From positions 1 through 7,695 of IMG/VR virus record IMGVR_UViG_2778261454_000007: 7,695 bases of DNA. One strand, given 5' to 3'. Below, piece by piece: positions 1 through 7,695 of this stretch (its first letter is position 1; each line of letters begins with the position of its first letter). Under the pieces are notes generated by a model. The model was not told where the DNA came from. It ran no database searches and was given only the letters and a program-made list of their open reading frames with translations. The position numbers and the translations under genes are program-made. The DNA comes from a virus (taxonomy: Duplodnaviria; Heunggongvirae; Uroviricota; Caudoviricetes).

Positions 1-61
1 GCGGCATAACCTGAATCTGAGGCAGCACCTGGCACGGCTGGGACGGAAGTCGCTGTCGTTC

Positions 62-1270
62 TCAAAATCGGTGGAGCTGCATGACAAAGTCATCGGGCAT
101 TATCTGAACATAAAACACTATCAATAAGTTGGAGTCATTACCCGCCAGCATAGCGAAACAATATGTATCCCAATGGTCTGGTGAGTGCAGGTTGAGTTTT
201 TTCTTCATATCCTCCTTACTCATCACCTTCCATTGACCTGCGGAGTTAATCCCTACAGGGATTTTCGACGCTTCCTCAATAGTTTCATTACCCTTATCCA
301 GTCTCATACGACCAGATTTTACGGCCTCTGCGGCTTGAACGTTGGCATAAGCACGCTTATCAAAGTACAGGCTCTTATCTTCACGACTATGCATCTTTTT
401 ACCCCAGCGTATACGCTGTACGGTAATACCATAATGCTCGTACATCAGATCCGCCGTTGCTTTACCCAGGCCATCGCCGTCGATCGCTATGGTGATATTT
501 GGGAATCGCTCAGGATTACATTCTGCGAAAATTTTGGCGGCAAGCTGCGTTTCTGTAACGTCTGTGTATTCCAGCATTCGATAGTTGATTACACGGCGTT
601 TATTTCGCTGGCCGGACACCATCATGATATTGATAACGGACTTATCCCGTCCCGTACCACCAGCAACGTCCACACATGCAAGCCAGCCCCATCCTTTGGC
701 AATCTTGACTTTCCGCCGCGTTGCACGTTCAACCTCATCACGTCCAAGAAGGAAGCCATCCTGTGATTTAGGGAATAGGCCGCGTACCTTAATCATGTAC
801 ATAGGGTTATCACGCCCGCCGTACTCCGCCAGCTTCATTTTGATAAATGCTGGCGTTACCAGCGGTGATTCCTCACTGTTAAGCGTGATCGCCGTATAAA
901 CGCCATCAGGGTTACCAGGACGCTTGACCAGTTTATGGTGTGTATCGTAGAAATAGCCGCTTGGGCGTGTAGGCTGTGACAGCAATAAGATGCGGTTATC
1001 CTGTCCGGTAAGAGCACCGGTGATGATACCGAAAGCTCTATCACTGACACCGGAGGCTTCATCGATAATATACAGAAGATGATCTGCGTGTTCACCGGCG
1101 AGAGCTTCTTCACTTCCCAGACGAAAGCCCTTCGGTACTACAGTCCATACACCTTTACCAGTAACCTCATAGAAAGCGGTTTCTGTCAGAACAAAATAAT
1201 CAGCAAGCCATGGAAAACGGCTGGTGGCCGTAGCCCAGTTTATCTTGATGTACTTGAATATACCGGTCAT
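62..1270 (-). CDS. pacB: Terminase large subunit (pacase PacB-like), C-terminal 402-aa segment; same frame as 1277..1546 but separated from it by an in-frame TAG, so the intact gene would span 62..1546 (494 codons)
   Basis: Minus-strand ORF with ATG at 1268..1270. Contains a Walker-B-like [11 protein letters not shown] and a C-terminal acidic-residue nuclease-like region ([18 protein letters not shown]) typical of phage large terminases. It lies directly downstream of pacA, and the combined length of 494 aa matches my recollection of P1 PacB. Confidence 0.85.
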
Positions 1271-1276
1271 TACCTG

Positions 1277-1546
1277 CTAAATTTTGTTCGCAACGATAAT
1301 GGCACGGGCACCGGGATACATGATTATGAACAACATGATCATGATAGAAGTCATGTCTGATTTCCCGGTACCGTGACCAGACGAAACAGATGTCTTGCTA
1401 CCCTGTTCCTGCACAGACTCAATAATCAGATCCTGCTGCCAGGTAGGTGTTTTGCCGAACAAAACATCAGCGGCCGCAATCCAGTCATAACGATATAGCG
1501 CCACCAACTCGCGCCAACGTGGATCCGTTACGCAACTTCTGGCCAT
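1277..1546 (-). pseudogene. pacB: PacB N-terminal 89-aa segment terminated by an in-frame amber codon (TAG = revcomp of 1277..1279); gene appears disrupted
   Basis: ATG at 1544..1546 overlaps the pacA stop (TAATG). Carries the P-loop-like SGHGTGKS. Frame arithmetic: 1546 and 1270 are both 1 mod 3, so the two ORFs share a frame; the codons read ...ANKI-TAG-CAG-GTA-ATG(TGIF...). Confidence 0.8.
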
Positions 1547-2739
1547 TAATCATCATCCCCGTATAGCTTGCGGGTAACTTCTTCGTCTTCCTCCTCGTCT
1601 TCGTCTAGATCTTGTTCCAGCCATGGTTCGTTTGATACACCTTCAGTATCAACATCTCCATAACCGCCTGTATCAACGATATCGGCGATTTCTTCCCTAC
1701 GTTGCTCAATCCACAATGCAGCATCGGCGCGGCGGTTGGCGGCCCGTTCTCGCGCAACTTTGTCCAGATCTTCAAGAGAAGGGCCACCGACGGCTGTTTG
1801 CCTTTCCTCATCATCGGTATTGGTCTTAGGAGCACGCAGATCGGCTTTGATTTGCTCCAGCATCAGGGGCGGAACTTTCCCGCCATGCGCCTCGATGAAT
1901 TCAGCTGCTTCCAGCACTGACCAGTTATTTTCACGCTTTCGTTCGTATGCCAGCTTAACAATGCCAGCCTGCCCCATAGACAAAGCGTGCTTTTCCGCCT
2001 CCCGGCTTTCTTTTCGATAGTTATTCCGGATGCTGTAAATGGTGTTGATCAGACTGCTTATCTGCGCGGAACAGCTGTTTAGCATGCTCGCGATACGGTA
2101 TTCAGGCGGAGTACCTTCATCATCGTCTTTTTGCTGATCGCGCATTTCCTGCACCAGGCGAATACACGTATCCCTGGCGTTCTCCAGCATAAGGAGATGA
2201 GAAAGAGACTTTTCAAGAAGAGTGGTTTCCAGAACATCGGCCCCGGACCGACGCAACATAGCGCGCGCGGCCTTCCGCGCTTCAACGTTATCTATCAGGT
2301 AATCGCCAGCTTCGAATTCAAAGCGTTCACCATCATCATCCAGGGTGTCGCGTTCCAGGCGATCACGTAAGGTCCGGTGGGCGCGGGTGATCACGTCATG
2401 ATCATCTGAACGATCATTTATGCGCTTATTTTGGCGCTTCGCATTCTCGACTGCGGCACTGACAACGGCATTAACTCTCTGTTTTTCCGCTATTTCAGCC
2501 GCAATATGATCACCTGCATGTTGATCATTAGAGTGATCAATGATCATGCTTTTTAGTGGCTTCCTGACTGGCTTATTTGGCTTGCGGCTGTCCGCAGTCC
2601 TGGTGTCTTCTTTGAAGGCACGGAGATAACGACGTGCAGTATTAGGGTTAAGATTAAACTCGGCGGCATACTGTGCGATGGTGTAACCACCATCTCGCGC
2701 CAGGCGAGCAAAATTCTTCTTGTGATCGTCCCAGGTCAC
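1546..2739 (-). CDS. pacA: Small terminase / pacase subunit PacA (397 aa) with N-terminal HTH and highly acidic C-terminus
   Basis: 397-aa ORF; N-terminus [39 protein letters not shown] is HTH-like, and the C-terminus [13 protein letters not shown] is acidic. Apparent GTG start (revcomp of 2737..2739) preceded by AAGGAAG. The TGATC(A/G) hexamer clusters of a P1-type pac site lie inside its 5' third, and it is translationally coupled to pacB. Confidence 0.9.
2360..2546. other. pac-type packaging site: two clusters of TGATC(A/G) hexamers (Dam GATC sites) inside pacA
   Basis: Hexamers at 2360-2365 (CGATCA), 2388-2393, 2399-2404, 2411-2416 (CGATCA), then 2507-2512, 2522-2527, 2534-2539, 2541-2546 (TGATCA), with about 90 bp of hexamer-free DNA between the clusters. 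P1 pac is described as about 160 bp with seven TGATCA/G elements, four at one end and three at the other. Confidence 0.75.
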
Positions 2740-2824
2740 TTATGCTTCCTTTCGTAAAAACTCTTTTTGACGCGAGGGTAACGAAAGTCACATGTCAAAA
2801 GGCCCGGAACGGGCAAGCAATCAA

Positions 2825-3277
2825 TCAGATACGTGCGGATGTGGCATTACCGTAATGACGGTGCTGACGGGCCACCTTATTGAAAAGTTGACGCGCCATT
2901 ACCCAAGGCTGGTGCTCCCGGCGTTCCTTTTCGTCCTGCGTCATATAGAGTTCGTTCTGGAGTTTTTCATCAAACCGGCGCGGAGCGCGGCTACGGCGAA
3001 AGAATTCAGGATTCAGAGAGTGGATCTGAAATCTACGTGGGCGTGTACTGTCATCAATCAAAACAGACGAATACTTAGACACAGCGATAGCCTTTAAGCG
3101 CAGATAAACATCGCGCTTATCGACATCCAGATGTGGGTATTCCTTTTCAAGAATTGCTGCGAGTTCTTTCGCTGATAGAAGAGATTTAGTGCGGATCATG
3201 TAATCCGCAATCTCGTACGATGTTATTCGTGAGTGATTTATTTCCATGAAGTGGCGTCCCTGCCAGTTAAGTAACAT
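2825..3277 (-). CDS. lpa: Late promoter activator Lpa-like protein (150 aa)
   Basis: 150-aa ORF with ATG at 3275..3277 preceded by AGGTGA. It sits immediately upstream of pacA/pacB in the same orientation, which is the P1 arrangement. Identity is by recollection of P1 Lpa (gp10) and gene order, not by alignment. Confidence 0.75.
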   Translation of the reverse strand: MLLNWQGRHFMEINHSRITSYEIADYMIRTKSLLSAKELAAILEKEYPHLDVDKRDVYLRLKAIAVSKYSSVLIDDSTRPRRFQIHSLNPEFFRRSRAPRRFDEKLQNELYMTQDEKERREHQPWVMARQLFNKVARQHRHYGNATSARI

Positions 3278-3322
3278 CCTGTCACCTACTGATTAGCCCA
3301 TGTCAACTAATCAACGTGGAAT

Positions 3323-3364
3323 ATAATACCATCGATTAAAGAAATAGCAATACATTAGAGCAAT
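3323..3364 (-). promoter_or_regulatory. Putative lpa promoter (-35 TTGCTA 3345..3350, 16-bp spacer, TGG-extended -10 TATTAT 3323..3328) overlapping a C1-operator-like 17-mer (3348..3364)
   Basis: The minus strand reads ATTGCTCTAATGTATTG, versus the P1 C1 operator consensus ATTGCTCTAATAAATTT as I recall it (first 11 nt identical, 14/17 overall). A sigma70-like -35/-10 pair overlaps this site, about 45 bp upstream of the lpa ATG. Confidence 0.45.
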
Positions 3365-3365
3365 T

Positions 3366-4409
3366 TTATCTAACACTCGACGAGTGACTTGTGATAGCGC
3401 CGACTCCAAGCGCGTAATCAAAGAACAATCGTTGATGCATCGCCAGCCTACCGTGCGTCTTCTCCCAATTATCGCGGTCACGCTCAATATCACGCTGGCA
3501 TGACTGGCACAGAGGAATTGCGTAAATGTCATGCGCGCATAATCGACTATGACGAACGATATAAGGCGTAATGTAAGCGCCAGCTCCCGCCGCTCCACAC
3601 CCACAGCATGGACGGGAAGCAACAAAGTCCATGTACTCAGGTAATTTTAGCGATTGCAGTTTTGGTATTTTGAAATGCGCCATGCCAGGGTCGGAGTCAA
3701 CATCCACAGGGCATACTTTTGCACGCATCGGCGCGGCGCGTTCTTCCATCATCTGAACATATGCTGTAGCGCGATCGTCATACGGGCGAATATCCGCCTC
3801 TTTCAGAGGTCCGCTATCCTGCGTTGCGGCTTTCATCTTATTTATTGATATACGGCAAACTTCTTCCGGCATCAGGTGCATCATGTTGCGCATGAAAGCC
3901 CACCAGCACAGTTCCTGAATACTTAAATCATGGCCATCTGAAAGCCCCATTTCCTGACGGGCGACATCCAGTATCCAGTTAACGCGATTATTATGCAGCG
4001 TTTCTTTCAGCTCATTAAAACCACGCATCCGGTAATGGTTATCGTGATGCCAGCACAACAACACCGCGCTCTTGTCTCGTTCAGCGTGGACAATATGGTT
4101 GTCACACCAACTACGATCTGCGGCCTGGCATTGCCCCTCTTTCCTGCGCAACCACGCCACCAGCGAGTCAATTCCACCAATACGGTGAAACAGTTCATCG
4201 CTGTTAAAAAACGGCTGCAACGCCTCATTTGTTGCCATGGTTTGCTCGGTAACAACGAGGCCGTCTTCCATGTGCTCGATTAACTCACGCGGCACCGGCT
4301 CCATAATAAATTTACGGCCAGCCTCCACCAGCTTTCTGACCTCCTGATCCACTTTGAACGTGGCGAGGCCAAGCTCTTTCTGTACAAAGGGAGTAATTAC
4401 GGCTTTCAC
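3366..4409 (-). CDS. pdcB: Post-doc protein PdcB-like, 347 aa, function unknown; Cys/His-rich C-terminal region (CCGCG...H...CAHD...CQSC) suggests a Zn-binding, possibly HNH-like, domain
   Basis: Long minus-strand ORF with GTG start (revcomp of 4407..4409) preceded by AAAGGTG; stop at 3366..3368. Its position after doc/pdcA and before lpa matches P1 pdcB from memory. No catalytic motif is assigned with confidence. Confidence 0.65.
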
Positions 4410-4436
4410 ATCACACCTTTCATCACTGATTGGGCT

Positions 4437-4616
4437 TTATCTGCTGCCCGGCATTCTCTGTTTAAGCACAACCATTTCCTGACGGCATAACACAGCAATA
4501 GCAGTCCTGGCTCCAATTTGCTTACCAACCAGGTATTGCTTTACCTCGCGGCGACTCACGCCATCAAGAAGCATCTTTAACGCTTCACGGGACAATTTGT
4601 TGTATTTGCGTGCCAT
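4437..4616 (-). CDS. pdcA: Small post-doc protein (59 aa from ATG 4614..4616; the ORF track extends to 4637), possible HTH-containing regulator
   Basis: ATG at 4614..4616 lies 5 nt after the doc stop and is preceded by GGAG; the longer start at 4637 would overlap doc. The sequence LSREALKMLLDGVSRREVKQYLVG is helix-turn-helix-like. The gene symbol is assigned by position only. Confidence 0.5.
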   Translation of the reverse strand: MARKYNKLSREALKMLLDGVSRREVKQYLVGKQIGARTAIAVLCRQEMVVLKQRMPGSR

Positions 4617-4620
4617 TAAT

Positions 4621-5001
4621 CTACTCCGCAGAACCATACAATCTACGTAACGTGTCGGCGACAGAAGATACAGATATCTCGCCAGTCGCAGCGCCTACAG
4701 TAAGGTCTGCCAGTTCAGGTGAATCAAATACCTGCACTCCGTTACGGCGTAGAAATAGCAGCGCACTGTTTAGCGCGGTACGCTTATTGGCATCATTGAA
4801 TATATGCCCTCTCGCTGTAGCCACCAGGTAGGTGGCGGAGACTTCGAAAAGGTCGGTGATATCTTCGTAGGCAACTCTGGCCTGAACTCTCCCGATAATG
4901 GCCTCTGCCCTACCCGGATCTGACATTCCCGGCAGGCCGCCGTAGCGGCTTATATTCGCATCATGAAGCGCAATAAGTTCTTCCGGTGATATATGCCTCA
5001 T
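4621..5001 (-). CDS. doc: Doc toxin (death on curing; Fic-fold kinase), 126 aa
   Basis: Contains the Fic-type motif HIFNDANKR. Length and sequence match my recollection of P1 Doc. The start ATG (4999..5001) overlaps the phd stop (5001..5003) as TAATG. Confidence 0.95.
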
Positions 5002-5222
5002 TATCGGTTAACCAGTTCCTTGTTGGTGGAGTCCAGGGTGTCAAACAGGGATGCAAATTCAGCATCCAGCGCCGCTTTTTTGTAGGCTTCGAAAGTAGCC
5101 TTGCTGACAATTACTGCTGGCTCACGGCCTCTGCGGGTGATTTCAACCTCTTCCCCGGCTTCAACATTGTTGAGCACTTCAGAAAGGTTGCCGCGCGCGG
5201 TACGGAAGTTAATGGATTGCAT
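5001..5222 (-). CDS. phd: Phd antitoxin (prevent host death), 73 aa from ATG 5220..5222
   Basis: [41 protein letters not shown]... matches my recollection of P1 Phd. GAGGTG sits 4 nt upstream of the ATG at 5222. The ORF-track start at 5228 is a GTG two codons upstream and is less likely. Confidence 0.93.
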
Positions 5223-5228
5223 AAACAC

Positions 5229-5259
5229 CTCGTGTACTCGTTATGTGTACACAATTATA
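5229..5259 (-). promoter_or_regulatory. phd-doc promoter and operator: -10 TATAAT (revcomp of 5254..5259) followed by palindrome TGTGTACACA (5244..5253) and a second GTGTAC-containing imperfect palindrome (5231..5240)
   Basis: The minus strand reads GTTTATAATTGTGTACACATAACGAGTACACGAGGTGTTTATG. Phd is known to autorepress by binding palindromic operator sites that overlap its promoter. Confidence 0.7.
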
Positions 5260-5354
5260 AACTTCACAGGCATAAAGCACCAGCACTTTGCGGCTTAACA
5301 AACCTCTAGGCAGGTCATTCGTAGCCTAATGTCCGAACTGCTAAAGCATCCAAG

Positions 5355-5366
5355 TTGCTGTAGAAT
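5355..5366 (+). promoter_or_regulatory. Possible hsdM promoter -10 element TAGAAT (5361..5366); no convincing -35
   Basis: This is the only reasonable -10-like hexamer within 40 bp upstream of the hsdM ATG. Support is weak. Confidence 0.25.
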
Positions 5367-5398
5367 CACCGCCAATTACATAAGCCTGAAATAAGTGG

Positions 5399-6961
5399 AT
5401 GAAAATGACAAGTATTCAACAACGTGCAGAGCTTCATCGTCAAATCTGGCAAATTGCTAACGATGTCAGAGGTTCGGTCGATGGATGGGATTTTAAGCAA
5501 TACGTTCTGGGCGCGCTTTTCTACCGTTTTATCAGCGAAAATTTTTCCAGCTATATTGAAGCCGGTGATGACAGCATCTGTTATGCGAAACTGGATGACA
5601 GCGTAATTACTGATGACATTAAAGACGATGCCATCAAAACCAAAGGCTACTTCATCTACCCAAGTCAGCTTTTCTGCAACGTAGCTGCGAAAGCAAATAC
5701 CAATGACAGACTGAACGCAGATTTAAACAGCATCTTCGTTGCTATCGAAAGTTCTGCTTACGGTTATCCTTCAGAAGCAGACATCAAAGGTTTGTTTGCT
5801 GATTTCGATACCACCAGTAACCGCCTGGGTAACACCGTTAAAGATAAAAATGCCCGCCTGGCTGCGGTTCTGAAAGGGGTTGAAGGGTTAAAGCTTGGCG
5901 ACTTTAACGAACATCAGATTGACCTGTTCGGCGATGCCTATGAGTTCCTGATTTCTAACTATGCCGCGAATGCCGGTAAGTCAGGCGGCGAGTTCTTTAC
6001 ACCGCAGCACGTCTCTAAGCTGATTGCACAACTGGCAATGCACGGCCAGACCCACGTTAACAAAATCTACGACCCGGCAGCAGGTTCCGGTTCGCTGTTG
6101 TTGCAGGCTAAAAAACAGTTTGATGACCATATCATCGAAGAAGGTTTTTTTGGTCAGGAAATCAACCATACGACCTATAACCTGGCGCGTATGAACATGT
6201 TTTTGCACAACATCAACTACGACAAGTTTGATATCAAGTTGGGCAATACGCTGACTGAGCCGCACTTCAGAGATGAAAAACCGTTTGATGCCATCGTTTC
6301 TAACCCGCCGTATTCGGTGAAATGGATTGGCAGCGATGACCCGACGCTGATTAACGATGAACGTTTTGCCCCGGCTGGCGTTCTGGCCCCCAAATCCAAA
6401 GCTGACTTTGCGTTTGTATTACATGCGCTGAACTATCTTTCTGCCAAAGGTCGTGCTGCGATTGTCTGCTTCCCGGGCATTTTTTACCGTGGCGGCGCGG
6501 AGCAGAAAATCCGTCAGTATCTGGTTGACAATAACTATGTCGAAACCGTGATTTCACTCGCACCGAACCTGTTCTTTGGCACCACCATTGCCGTCAATAT
6601 TCTGGTGTTGTCTAAACATAAAACGGATACCAACGTTCAGTTTATTGATGCCAGCGAGCTGTTCAAAAAAGAGACTAACAACAACATTCTGACCGATGCC
6701 CATATCGAACAGATTATGCAGGTATTTGCCAGCAAGGAAGATGTTGCTCATCTGGCGAAATCTGTCGCGTTTGAGACCGTTGTCGCGAATGACTATAACC
6801 TGTCGGTGAGCAGCTATGTGGAAGCGAAAGATACTCGCGAAATTATCGATATCGCTGAGTTGAATGCAGAGCTGAAAACCACGGTCAGCAAAATCGACCA
6901 GTTGCGTAAAGATATTGATGCGATTGTGGCTGAAATTGAAGGCTGCGAGGTGCAAAAATGA
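5399..6961 (+). CDS. hsdM: Type I restriction-modification methyltransferase subunit HsdM, type IC (EcoR124I/EcoDXXI/EcoprrI family), 520 aa
   Basis: N6-adenine methyltransferase motifs are present: AdoMet-binding [10 protein letters not shown] (6071..6100) and catalytic NPPY (6302..6313). The N-terminus [25 protein letters not shown] and the 520-aa length match my recollection of EcoR124I HsdM. The stop overlaps the hsdS start (ATGA, 6958..6961). Confidence 0.95.
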
Positions 6962-7695
6962 GCGAGTTGAGTTATCTGGAAAAATTGCTGGATGGGGTTG
7001 AGGTTAAATGGAAAGCAGTGGGCGATATCGCCGGGTATTCAACAACCAAAGTTGATGCTGATAAACTTGATGCCACTTCATTCGTTGGCGTTGATAATCT
7101 CCTTGCTGATAAAGGCGGTCGCATTGATGCCACCTATCAGCCTAATACGGCACGTTTAACTGCCTATGAGCCAGGTGATATTCTTTTAGGTAATATTCGC
7201 CCATATTTAAAGAAAGTTTGGATGGCGGAGAATAATGGCGGGTGCAGTGGTGATGTCCTTGCTATACGCATTTTAGCAGACTGTAAAAAAATTATTAGTC
7301 CAGAATATCTCTACTATGCATTATCGTCGGATTCATTTTTTTCTTACAGTATGCAGCACGCTAAAGGGGCAAAGATGCCTCGAGGCAGTAAAGATGCAAT
7401 TTTAAACTATCAAATACCCATCCCTTGTCCCAGCGCCCCGGAAAAATCCCTTGCCATCCAGTCTGAAATTGTTCGGATTCTGGATAAATTTACTGAGCTT
7501 ACAGCAGAGCTTACAGCAGAGCTTACAGCAGAGCTTAGCATGCGTAAAAAACAATACAACTACTATCGCGACCAGTTGTTGAGTTTTAAAGAGGATGAGG
7601 TTGAGGGTAAGAGGAAAACCTTAGGGGAAATTATGAAGATGCGTGCCGGACAACATATTTCGGCTCATAATATAAATGAAAGAAAAGAAGAGAGT
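6958..7695 (+). CDS. hsdS: Type I R-M specificity subunit HsdS, 5' partial (246 codons; continues past window end): N-terminal target-recognition domain plus central conserved region with TAEL repeats
   Basis: ATG at 6958..6960 overlaps the hsdM stop. The conserved N-terminus [16 protein letters not shown] and the central region [49 protein letters not shown] are typical of type IC HsdS. There is no stop codon before the window end. Confidence 0.9.
7495..7536 (+). repeat. Tandem 12-bp repeat ACAGCAGAGCTT x3 (7501..7536) preceded by a 6-bp partial copy GAGCTT (7495..7500), in frame, encoding (T)[14 protein letters not shown] in the HsdS central spacer region
   Basis: Three perfect tandem copies are visible in the sequence. 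In the EcoR124I/EcoR124II system the copy number of this 12-bp unit (two versus three) sets the spacer length of the recognition site (N6 versus N7). Confidence 0.9.

Follow-up and report, generated by a model that had tools for sequence, protein, structure and literature searches.

The DNA analysed here, referred to as the window, is a stretch of 7,695 nucleotides (positions 1 to 7,695 of IMG/VR virus record IMGVR_UViG_2778261454_000007) and represents a Punavirus (P1-like) segment. The genes and transcription signals located in it are as follows.

1..143, no strand assigned: end of an IS1 element abutting the truncated 3′ end of pacB, with 100% identity to the IS1 annotated in P1 record AF125376
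62..1546, minus strand: pacB, disrupted, with TAG at codon 90; IS1 at window 143 replaces the last 26 codons
1546..2739, minus strand: pacA, pacase subunit gene, intact, 397 aa; pac lies at nt 194-352 of 1194
2775..2793, minus strand: LPpac, the late promoter driving pacA, with the -10 at 2775-2780 and a -22 box at 2785-2793, from the P1 annotation
2825..3277, minus strand: lpa, late promoter activator gene, 150 aa; Pfam BPP1_LPA, E = 3e-57
3366..4409, minus strand: pdcB (DUF968)
4621..5001, minus strand: doc (Fic/DOC)
5399..6961, plus strand: hsdM, type I, intact, 520 aa; N6_Mtase, E = 4.5e-121; the start of hsdS follows

The product of pacA is 97.0% identical in amino acid sequence to P1 PacA. 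An N-terminal HTH was matched weakly at aa 10-44 (20.4 bits, below the Pfam cut-off). The segment carrying LPpac (window 2730-2830) is 100% identical to P1. Within the packaging module pacA, LPpac and lpa are intact; pacB, which has 494 aa when intact, is not.

The right part of the window is devoid of GATC. No GATC was found in window 4921-7695 (2.8 kb, comprising phd and the region upstream of it, as well as hsdM and the beginning of hsdS) vs 9.0 expected, and none of 3000 simulations reached zero. In the hsd part alone the count was again 0, vs 7.9 expected, a value reached in 2 of 3000 simulations. The lack of GATC in 4921-7695 could indicate that the hsd cassette comes from a GATC-avoiding background. 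A perfect 12-nt tandem repeat, GAGCTTACAGCA x 3.6, is present in hsdS at window 7495-7537 and encodes TAEL repeats. In type IC HsdS proteins (EcoR124 family), the copy number of such a repeat changes the spacer length of the recognition sequence.

The elements listed below lie within pacA.

2360..2365, minus strand: eighth hexamer, TGATCG, at pacA nt 375; separated from HEX3 by 22 nt, and not part of the 161/162-bp minimal pac
2388..2416, minus strand: HEX3 cluster of pac, made up of TGATCG 2411-2416, TGATCA 2399-2404 and TGATCA 2388-2393 (pacA nt 324, 336, 347)
2455..2464, no strand assigned: positions matching the four annotated primary pac cleavage sites of P1 (AF234172 90804/5, 90806/7, 90810/1, 90812/3), transferred via a gap-free alignment
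2472..2484, minus strand: IHF binding site of pac, from the P1 protein_bind feature 90784-90796 transferred by alignment; IHF binding is predicted
2507..2546, minus strand: HEX4 cluster of pac, with four copies of TGATCA at 2541-2546, 2534-2539, 2522-2527 and 2507-2512 (pacA nt 194, 201, 213, 228)

A pattern search for TGATCR in the window returned eight matches in the pac region, all of them TGATC(A/G) on the minus strand, which is the sense strand of pacA. Six of the eight are the palindrome TGATCA and the remaining two (2360-2365 and 2411-2416) read TGATCG on the minus strand; every one of them contains GATC. The hexamers are grouped 4 + 3 + 1, in clusters that span 2360..2416 and 2507..2546, and no GATC is present in the 90-nt spacer between these clusters (2417-2506). 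The initial annotation of this DNA had described eight hexamers in two clusters, separated by about 90 bp without hexamers and placed in the 5′ third of pacA. The search returned exactly the same cluster coordinates, and the array was located at pacA nt 194-380 of 1194. That annotation had also proposed that GATC density be compared with the rest of the window, and a local elevation was indeed seen, with 42.8 per kb in the array (8 in 187 bp) vs 2.5 per kb elsewhere. From the rest of the window 0.47 GATC would be expected in 187 bp (Poisson P = 4e-8). When the window was simulated 5000 times with a first-order Markov model, 187-bp stretches contained at most 7 GATC and at most 5 hexamers, never 8 of either. 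Over the whole window GATC is not enriched (27 observed vs 31 expected), the excess being purely local. A chance origin of the GATC cluster was rejected on the basis of the Markov simulations and the Poisson test. A weak 12-nt direct repeat adjoins HEX3 at window 2416-2439 (sense strand AAGCGCCAAAAT / AAGCGCATAAAT); it is identical in P1, is not conserved in Cronobacter phage JK004 and is probably due to chance.

The pac site of P1 was defined between 1987 and 1994 and has been used in P1 cloning and phagemid vectors. Its canonical description was taken here from PMC10028697 and PMC11260489. P1 pac is a 161-bp part of pacA in which seven TGATCA/G repeats, each with a Dam GATC, form the groups HEX4 and HEX3; an IHF site and a central cleavage site are also present (PMC10028697). 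The seven hexanucleotide repeats are also described in PMC11260489, which cites Sternberg & Coulby 1990. Pacase binds hemimethylated pac, further methylation promotes cleavage, and synonymous mutation of the hexamers lowers the P1 titre about 9-fold (PMC10028697). In the window, seven TGATC(A/G) hexamers stand 4 + 3 at the ends of about 160 bp (the HEX4-to-HEX3 span is 159 bp), as in the definition of a P1-type pac (PMC10028697), and the site lies inside the 5′ part of the pacA coding sequence.

Alignment to the P1 pac region, likewise put forward in the initial annotation as a check, gave 249 of 251 bases identical between window 2330-2580 and P1 AF234172 without a gap. The counterparts of the annotated cleavage sites and of the IHF site both fall inside the 90-nt spacer. 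Window 2455-2464, the counterpart of the cleavage sites, is identical in sequence to P1. Over 2330-2580 two bases differ from P1: 2506, which lies right next to a hexamer, and 2479, which is part of the IHF site. A candidate IHF site thus placed between HEX4 and the cleavage region (2472-2484) departs from P1 by one substitution. Its sense strand reads AAACAGAGAGTTA in the window vs AAACAAAGAGTTA in P1, an A-to-G change at 2479 that hits a conserved position of the IHF consensus. The allele of the window is shared by phage P7 and by 18 of 86 relatives, and two further alleles of the site occur in the population. As P7 has the same allele, the substitution at 2479 is presumably tolerated.

These results indicate that the site is pac, at which headful packaging of a P1-type (Punavirus) phage-plasmid starts. 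It is an orthologue of P1 and P7 pac, almost without difference from them in sequence, and is most likely usable only with pacase supplied in trans; a probability of roughly 0.93 was assigned to this reading. The P1 pac architecture proposed in the initial annotation is thereby supported as orthology to the experimentally defined P1 site; the disruption of pacB next door had been missed there and is added here. As a feature pac is already known, and its region is widespread, being found in 571 PLSDB plasmids and in 558 of 5426 complete E. coli genomes (~10%).

Two separate lesions were located in pacB. Codon 90 (window 1277-1279, minus strand) is an in-frame amber TAG in place of the CAG (Gln) of P1, and splits the gene into ORFs of 89 aa and 402 aa. 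The codon is CAG in 80 of 80 IMG/VR relatives as well as in P1, RCS47 and 673R5, and TAG was found only in the window and in plasmid pLR-06-2. At the other end of the gene, an IS1 insertion at window 143 interrupts pacB 81 nt ahead of its usual stop codon. The resulting pacB-IS1 fusion ORF ends at 62 and has 494 aa as in the normal gene, a coincidence, with 26 foreign residues at the C-terminus.

Among public records the closest to the window is that of pLR-06-2 (NZ_AP025548), an E. coli plasmid of 145 kb with many IS elements that bears aminoglycoside-resistance genes. Over window 1-7537 the two sequences are separated by two substitutions and a 1-nt indel, and a further substitution was seen over window 7495-7695. 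The hsdS repeat of the plasmid exceeds that of the window by 36 nt (three units). One extra A is present in its hsdM at window 5458, and PLSDB lists no hsdM CDS for it. The hsdM and other differences indicate that the window is a close relative of the pLR-06-2 record and not identical to it. In the ~98 kb of pLR-06-2 that were inspected, which lie beyond its first 48 kb and in which many products are unnamed, few P1 genes were recognisable. Among the incompletely annotated products of these ~98 kb, those of P1 type were c1, coi, a Cre-sized integrase, ref and par-type partition genes (ParB, AAA ATPase). The surroundings of the site look like a decaying P1 remnant.

With pacB disrupted next door, this copy of pac has probably lost its own enzyme. 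The damage to pacB, set against an intact cis site and intact pacA, LPpac and lpa, argues for an orphan pac that is most likely inert on its own, its use depending on pacase provided in trans by a P1-like phage that resides in the same cell or superinfects it. Alternatively, the module could still work in cis, if the TAG in pacB were suppressed, read through or a sequencing error, and if the lost C-terminal 26 residues were dispensable. A single transition turns CAG into TAG, and Gln would be reinstated by a supE (glnV) suppressor; across the IS1 junction the frame stays open and the protein length is unchanged, and the rest of the module is intact as described. A sequencing error fits poorly with the presence of the same TAG in pLR-06-2, which is an independent public record, and two independent lesions in one gene speak against a functional PacB. 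Moreover, the host plasmid looks like an IS-riddled mosaic. Since few P1 genes are recognisable in the inspected parts of pLR-06-2, function of pac in cis is doubtful, and only a small chance was given to an active module. An orphan pac dependent on pacase in trans is thus the preferred reading of the pacB lesions.

The arrangement of the hexamers was compared with that in divergent relatives of PacA. Cronobacter phage JK004, found by protein similarity, encodes a PacA of 70.5% amino acid identity and retains six hexamers in exact register (pacA nt 201, 213, 228 and 324, 336, 347). Between JK004 and the window, over nt 151-420, none of the 36 core-hexamer bases differ vs 111 of 234 (47%) other bases (p = 1e-9). 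Four IMG/VR contigs (L268, L275, L276 and L277, here the L268 clade), also found by protein similarity, encode PacA proteins of ~32% identity. In this clade, five or four TGATCR begin at gene nt 198 and are followed by a GATC-free gap of ~80 nt and then by three GATC elements (gene nt 198-379). For L268, 8 GATC per 187 nt was reached in none of 3000 simulations. The two-cluster regions of the L268 clade are predicted to be pac sites of an uncharacterised phage-plasmid clade, and an arrangement of GATC in two clusters may be an old feature conserved throughout the PacA family, even at 32% identity. In L215 (IMGVR_UViG_2773857937_000001), a JK004-like contig, an extra TGATCA was observed in the middle of the spacer at gene nt 275-280, beside the counterpart of the P1 cleavage positions (pacA nt 276-285).

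Searches by pattern were also carried out. With a 3+3 hexamer pattern that allowed a flexible gap of 80-100 nt, all 121 of 121 matches spanned exactly 152 nt; among GTDB species representatives, only two Escherichia genomes matched the 3+3 pattern. The contigs L209 and L112 were found by the hexamer pattern itself and are not independent evidence of hexamer retention. The L112 contig is the same as that of L215, which was also recovered by the protein search, so that the unbiased comparators are JK004, L215 and the L268 clade. A search for PacA relatives in genome contigs by two peptide patterns found none, the patterns probably being poor.

Dense GATC clusters are a hallmark of SeqA-bound regions, which counts in favour of another role for the array, namely that of a SeqA/Dam sequestration or transcription-control element, as in oriC or P1 oriR, that would regulate replication or pacA expression and would be no packaging signal. 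The response of pac to methylation state (PMC10028697) is consistent with such a role. However, the site is orthologous to the P1 stretch in which pac cleavage termini have been mapped, its arrangement travels with pacA in relatives down to 32% identity, and no replication gene adjoins pac in the window. A SeqA-type cluster as the primary role is unlikely, and the replacement of packaging by sequestration was judged very improbable; SeqA binding could coexist with packaging, the function that is preferred for the site.

The eighth hexamer is present in P1, P7, SJ46, JL22 and RCS47 and in 85 of 86 close relatives. In JK004, L215 and the L268 clade the corresponding position has no hexamer, and other GATC elements occur close by. 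The possibility raised at the outset, that one extra hexamer (2360..2365) is present relative to the canonical 4+3 arrangement, needs correction. The hexamer lies outside the 4+3 set but does not mark a departure from P1, which has it as well. A new 4+4 variant was rejected, all five of P1, P7, SJ46, JL22 and RCS47 having the element. The eighth hexamer is, as judged by alignment, part of the wild-type P1 sequence, and it could have an auxiliary role confined to the P1/P7 clade.

Conservation of the hexamers was assessed in pacA genes taken from IMG/VR and GenBank, 86 of them intact and representing 69 distinct alleles. All three HEX3 hexamers are invariant in 86 of 86 relatives. The HEX4 hexamers, identical to P1 in the window, are unchanged across the 86 except in 3 sequences that vary at the fourth hexamer. 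In nt 192-380 of the 69 alleles, 3 of 48 hexamer bases are polymorphic vs 41 of 141 other bases (Fisher p = 7e-4), and each of the three variable hexamer bases varies in only one or two sequences. The pac region is at the same time the most polymorphic part of pacA among these alleles, with 22 polymorphic sites in nt 241-300. The variable stretch corresponds to the pac spacer (window 2417-2506) and the upstream linker, pacA nt 121-300. The annotated cut positions lie amid this variation, seven sequence variants of pacA nt 271-290 being observed. The pac site encodes a poorly constrained linker of PacA, located right after the weakly matched N-terminal HTH. The linker residues common to the window, P1, SJ46 and JK004 are mostly those encoded by hexamers (D68, D72-Q73, D77, D109-R110, D113-H114 and V116-I117-T118).

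Third-codon positions show the same conservation. In the seven hexamers of the minimal site, 0 of 14 third positions vary among the 69 alleles. When all eight hexamers are taken, 1 of 16 varies, in the eighth hexamer, and elsewhere 31% vary. When synonymous codons were redrawn with the PacA protein held fixed (20000 draws), the mean was 2.4 hexamers with a maximum of 7, and no draw reached 8. For the GATC tetramer alone, the mean in the same redraw was 4.8, and 366 of 20000 draws reached 8. That the hexamers are a by-product of the protein, PacA needing Asp-His, Asp-Gln and Asp-Arg repeats that happen to spell GATC, would agree with the reading of 6 of the 8 hexamers as xxT-GAT-CRx (Asp followed by His, Gln or Arg) and with the only moderate enrichment of the tetramer over the fixed-protein redraw, but this explanation was rejected on the synonymous resampling, which leaves the full hexamer context unexplained, and on the third positions of the seven core hexamers, and is scarcely credible when the surrounding amino acids differ in JK004 and L215 with the hexamers still in register, and when synonymous hexamer mutations cut the yield of P1 (PMC10028697). 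The synonymous resampling and the comparisons with the alleles, JK004 and the L268 clade show selection on the DNA itself. The view of the initial annotation that a cis element doubles here as coding sequence agrees with the position of pac in pacA nt 194-352 and with hexamers in excess of the synonymous-codon expectation.

The mechanism of packaging initiation has been established for P1 and is applied to the present site by orthology. Packaging of P1 runs one way, from pacA towards pacB, a direction in which the coordinates of the window fall. Pacase (PacA + PacB) would recognise the seven TGATC(A/G) hexamers, in methylated form, in HEX4 (2507-2546) and HEX3 (2388-2416), one group on either side of the spacer. 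IHF, at its predicted site 2472-2484, and HU would bend the 90-bp spacer, and a staggered set of cuts would be made near the middle of the spacer at 2455-2464. With a Dam GATC in every hexamer, hemimethylated pac would be bound without cutting and full methylation would permit cleavage. Such a methylation gate would limit cutting on freshly replicated concatemers.

An intact pac that sits on a large IS-riddled plasmid next to a dead pacase gene may represent a hitch-hiking signal, at which any P1-like phage, co-resident or superinfecting, would cut within 2455-2464 and package plasmid DNA in one direction. This suggestion, with the two side readings of an ancient two-cluster GATC layout and an auxiliary eighth hexamer, is tentative. 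If the hitch-hiking signal is real, transduction of the adjoining DNA would be raised. Beside its broken pacB, this copy of pac may have become an orphaned cis site, open to mobilisation by helper phages. The conserved hexamer islands in the most variable stretch of pacA, in a layout kept at 32% identity, could help in predicting pac in uncharacterised phage-plasmids. The site itself is a textbook one, its confirmation mainly validates the call made in the initial annotation, and what the comparative footprint and the orphan status add to a known feature is modest.

Comparison with known systems places the site closest to P1 pac itself (AF234172 / NC_005856, ~90.72-90.88 kb, in pacA), with which it shares the sequences and spacings of all eight hexamers, the 90-nt spacer, the sequence at the cut positions and LPpac. 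It differs from P1 in the substitutions at 2506 and 2479 and in the disruption of the cognate pacB. The pac region of P7 (AF503408) is 99.4% identical over 321 nt, and the IHF-site allele AAACAGAGAGTTA is common to both. The P7 sequence departs from that of the window at pacA nt 333 and 353, with one amino acid replacement (T to N) as a result, and the pacB of P7 is intact by its annotation, unlike that of the window. JK004, L215 and the L268 clade (L268 and L275-L277) share with the window two GATC-hexamer clusters that start near gene nt 198-201, just after the N-terminal HTH, and are separated by a gap of ~80-90 nt. JK004 and L215 differ in being without hexamers 1 and 8 and in having other GATC elements at nt 175, 275, 364 or 390, whereas the L268 clade has 5+3 or 4+3 elements with other spacing, some of them AGATCA or CGATCG. 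In P22 one short asymmetric sequence serves as pac, and neither arrays of Dam hexamers nor control by methylation is known for it. The pac sites in small-terminase genes of other headful phages, such as P22 gene 3 (cited in PMC11260489), resemble the present site in being cis packaging signals inside the gene of the DNA-recognition subunit, from which headful packaging proceeds in one direction.
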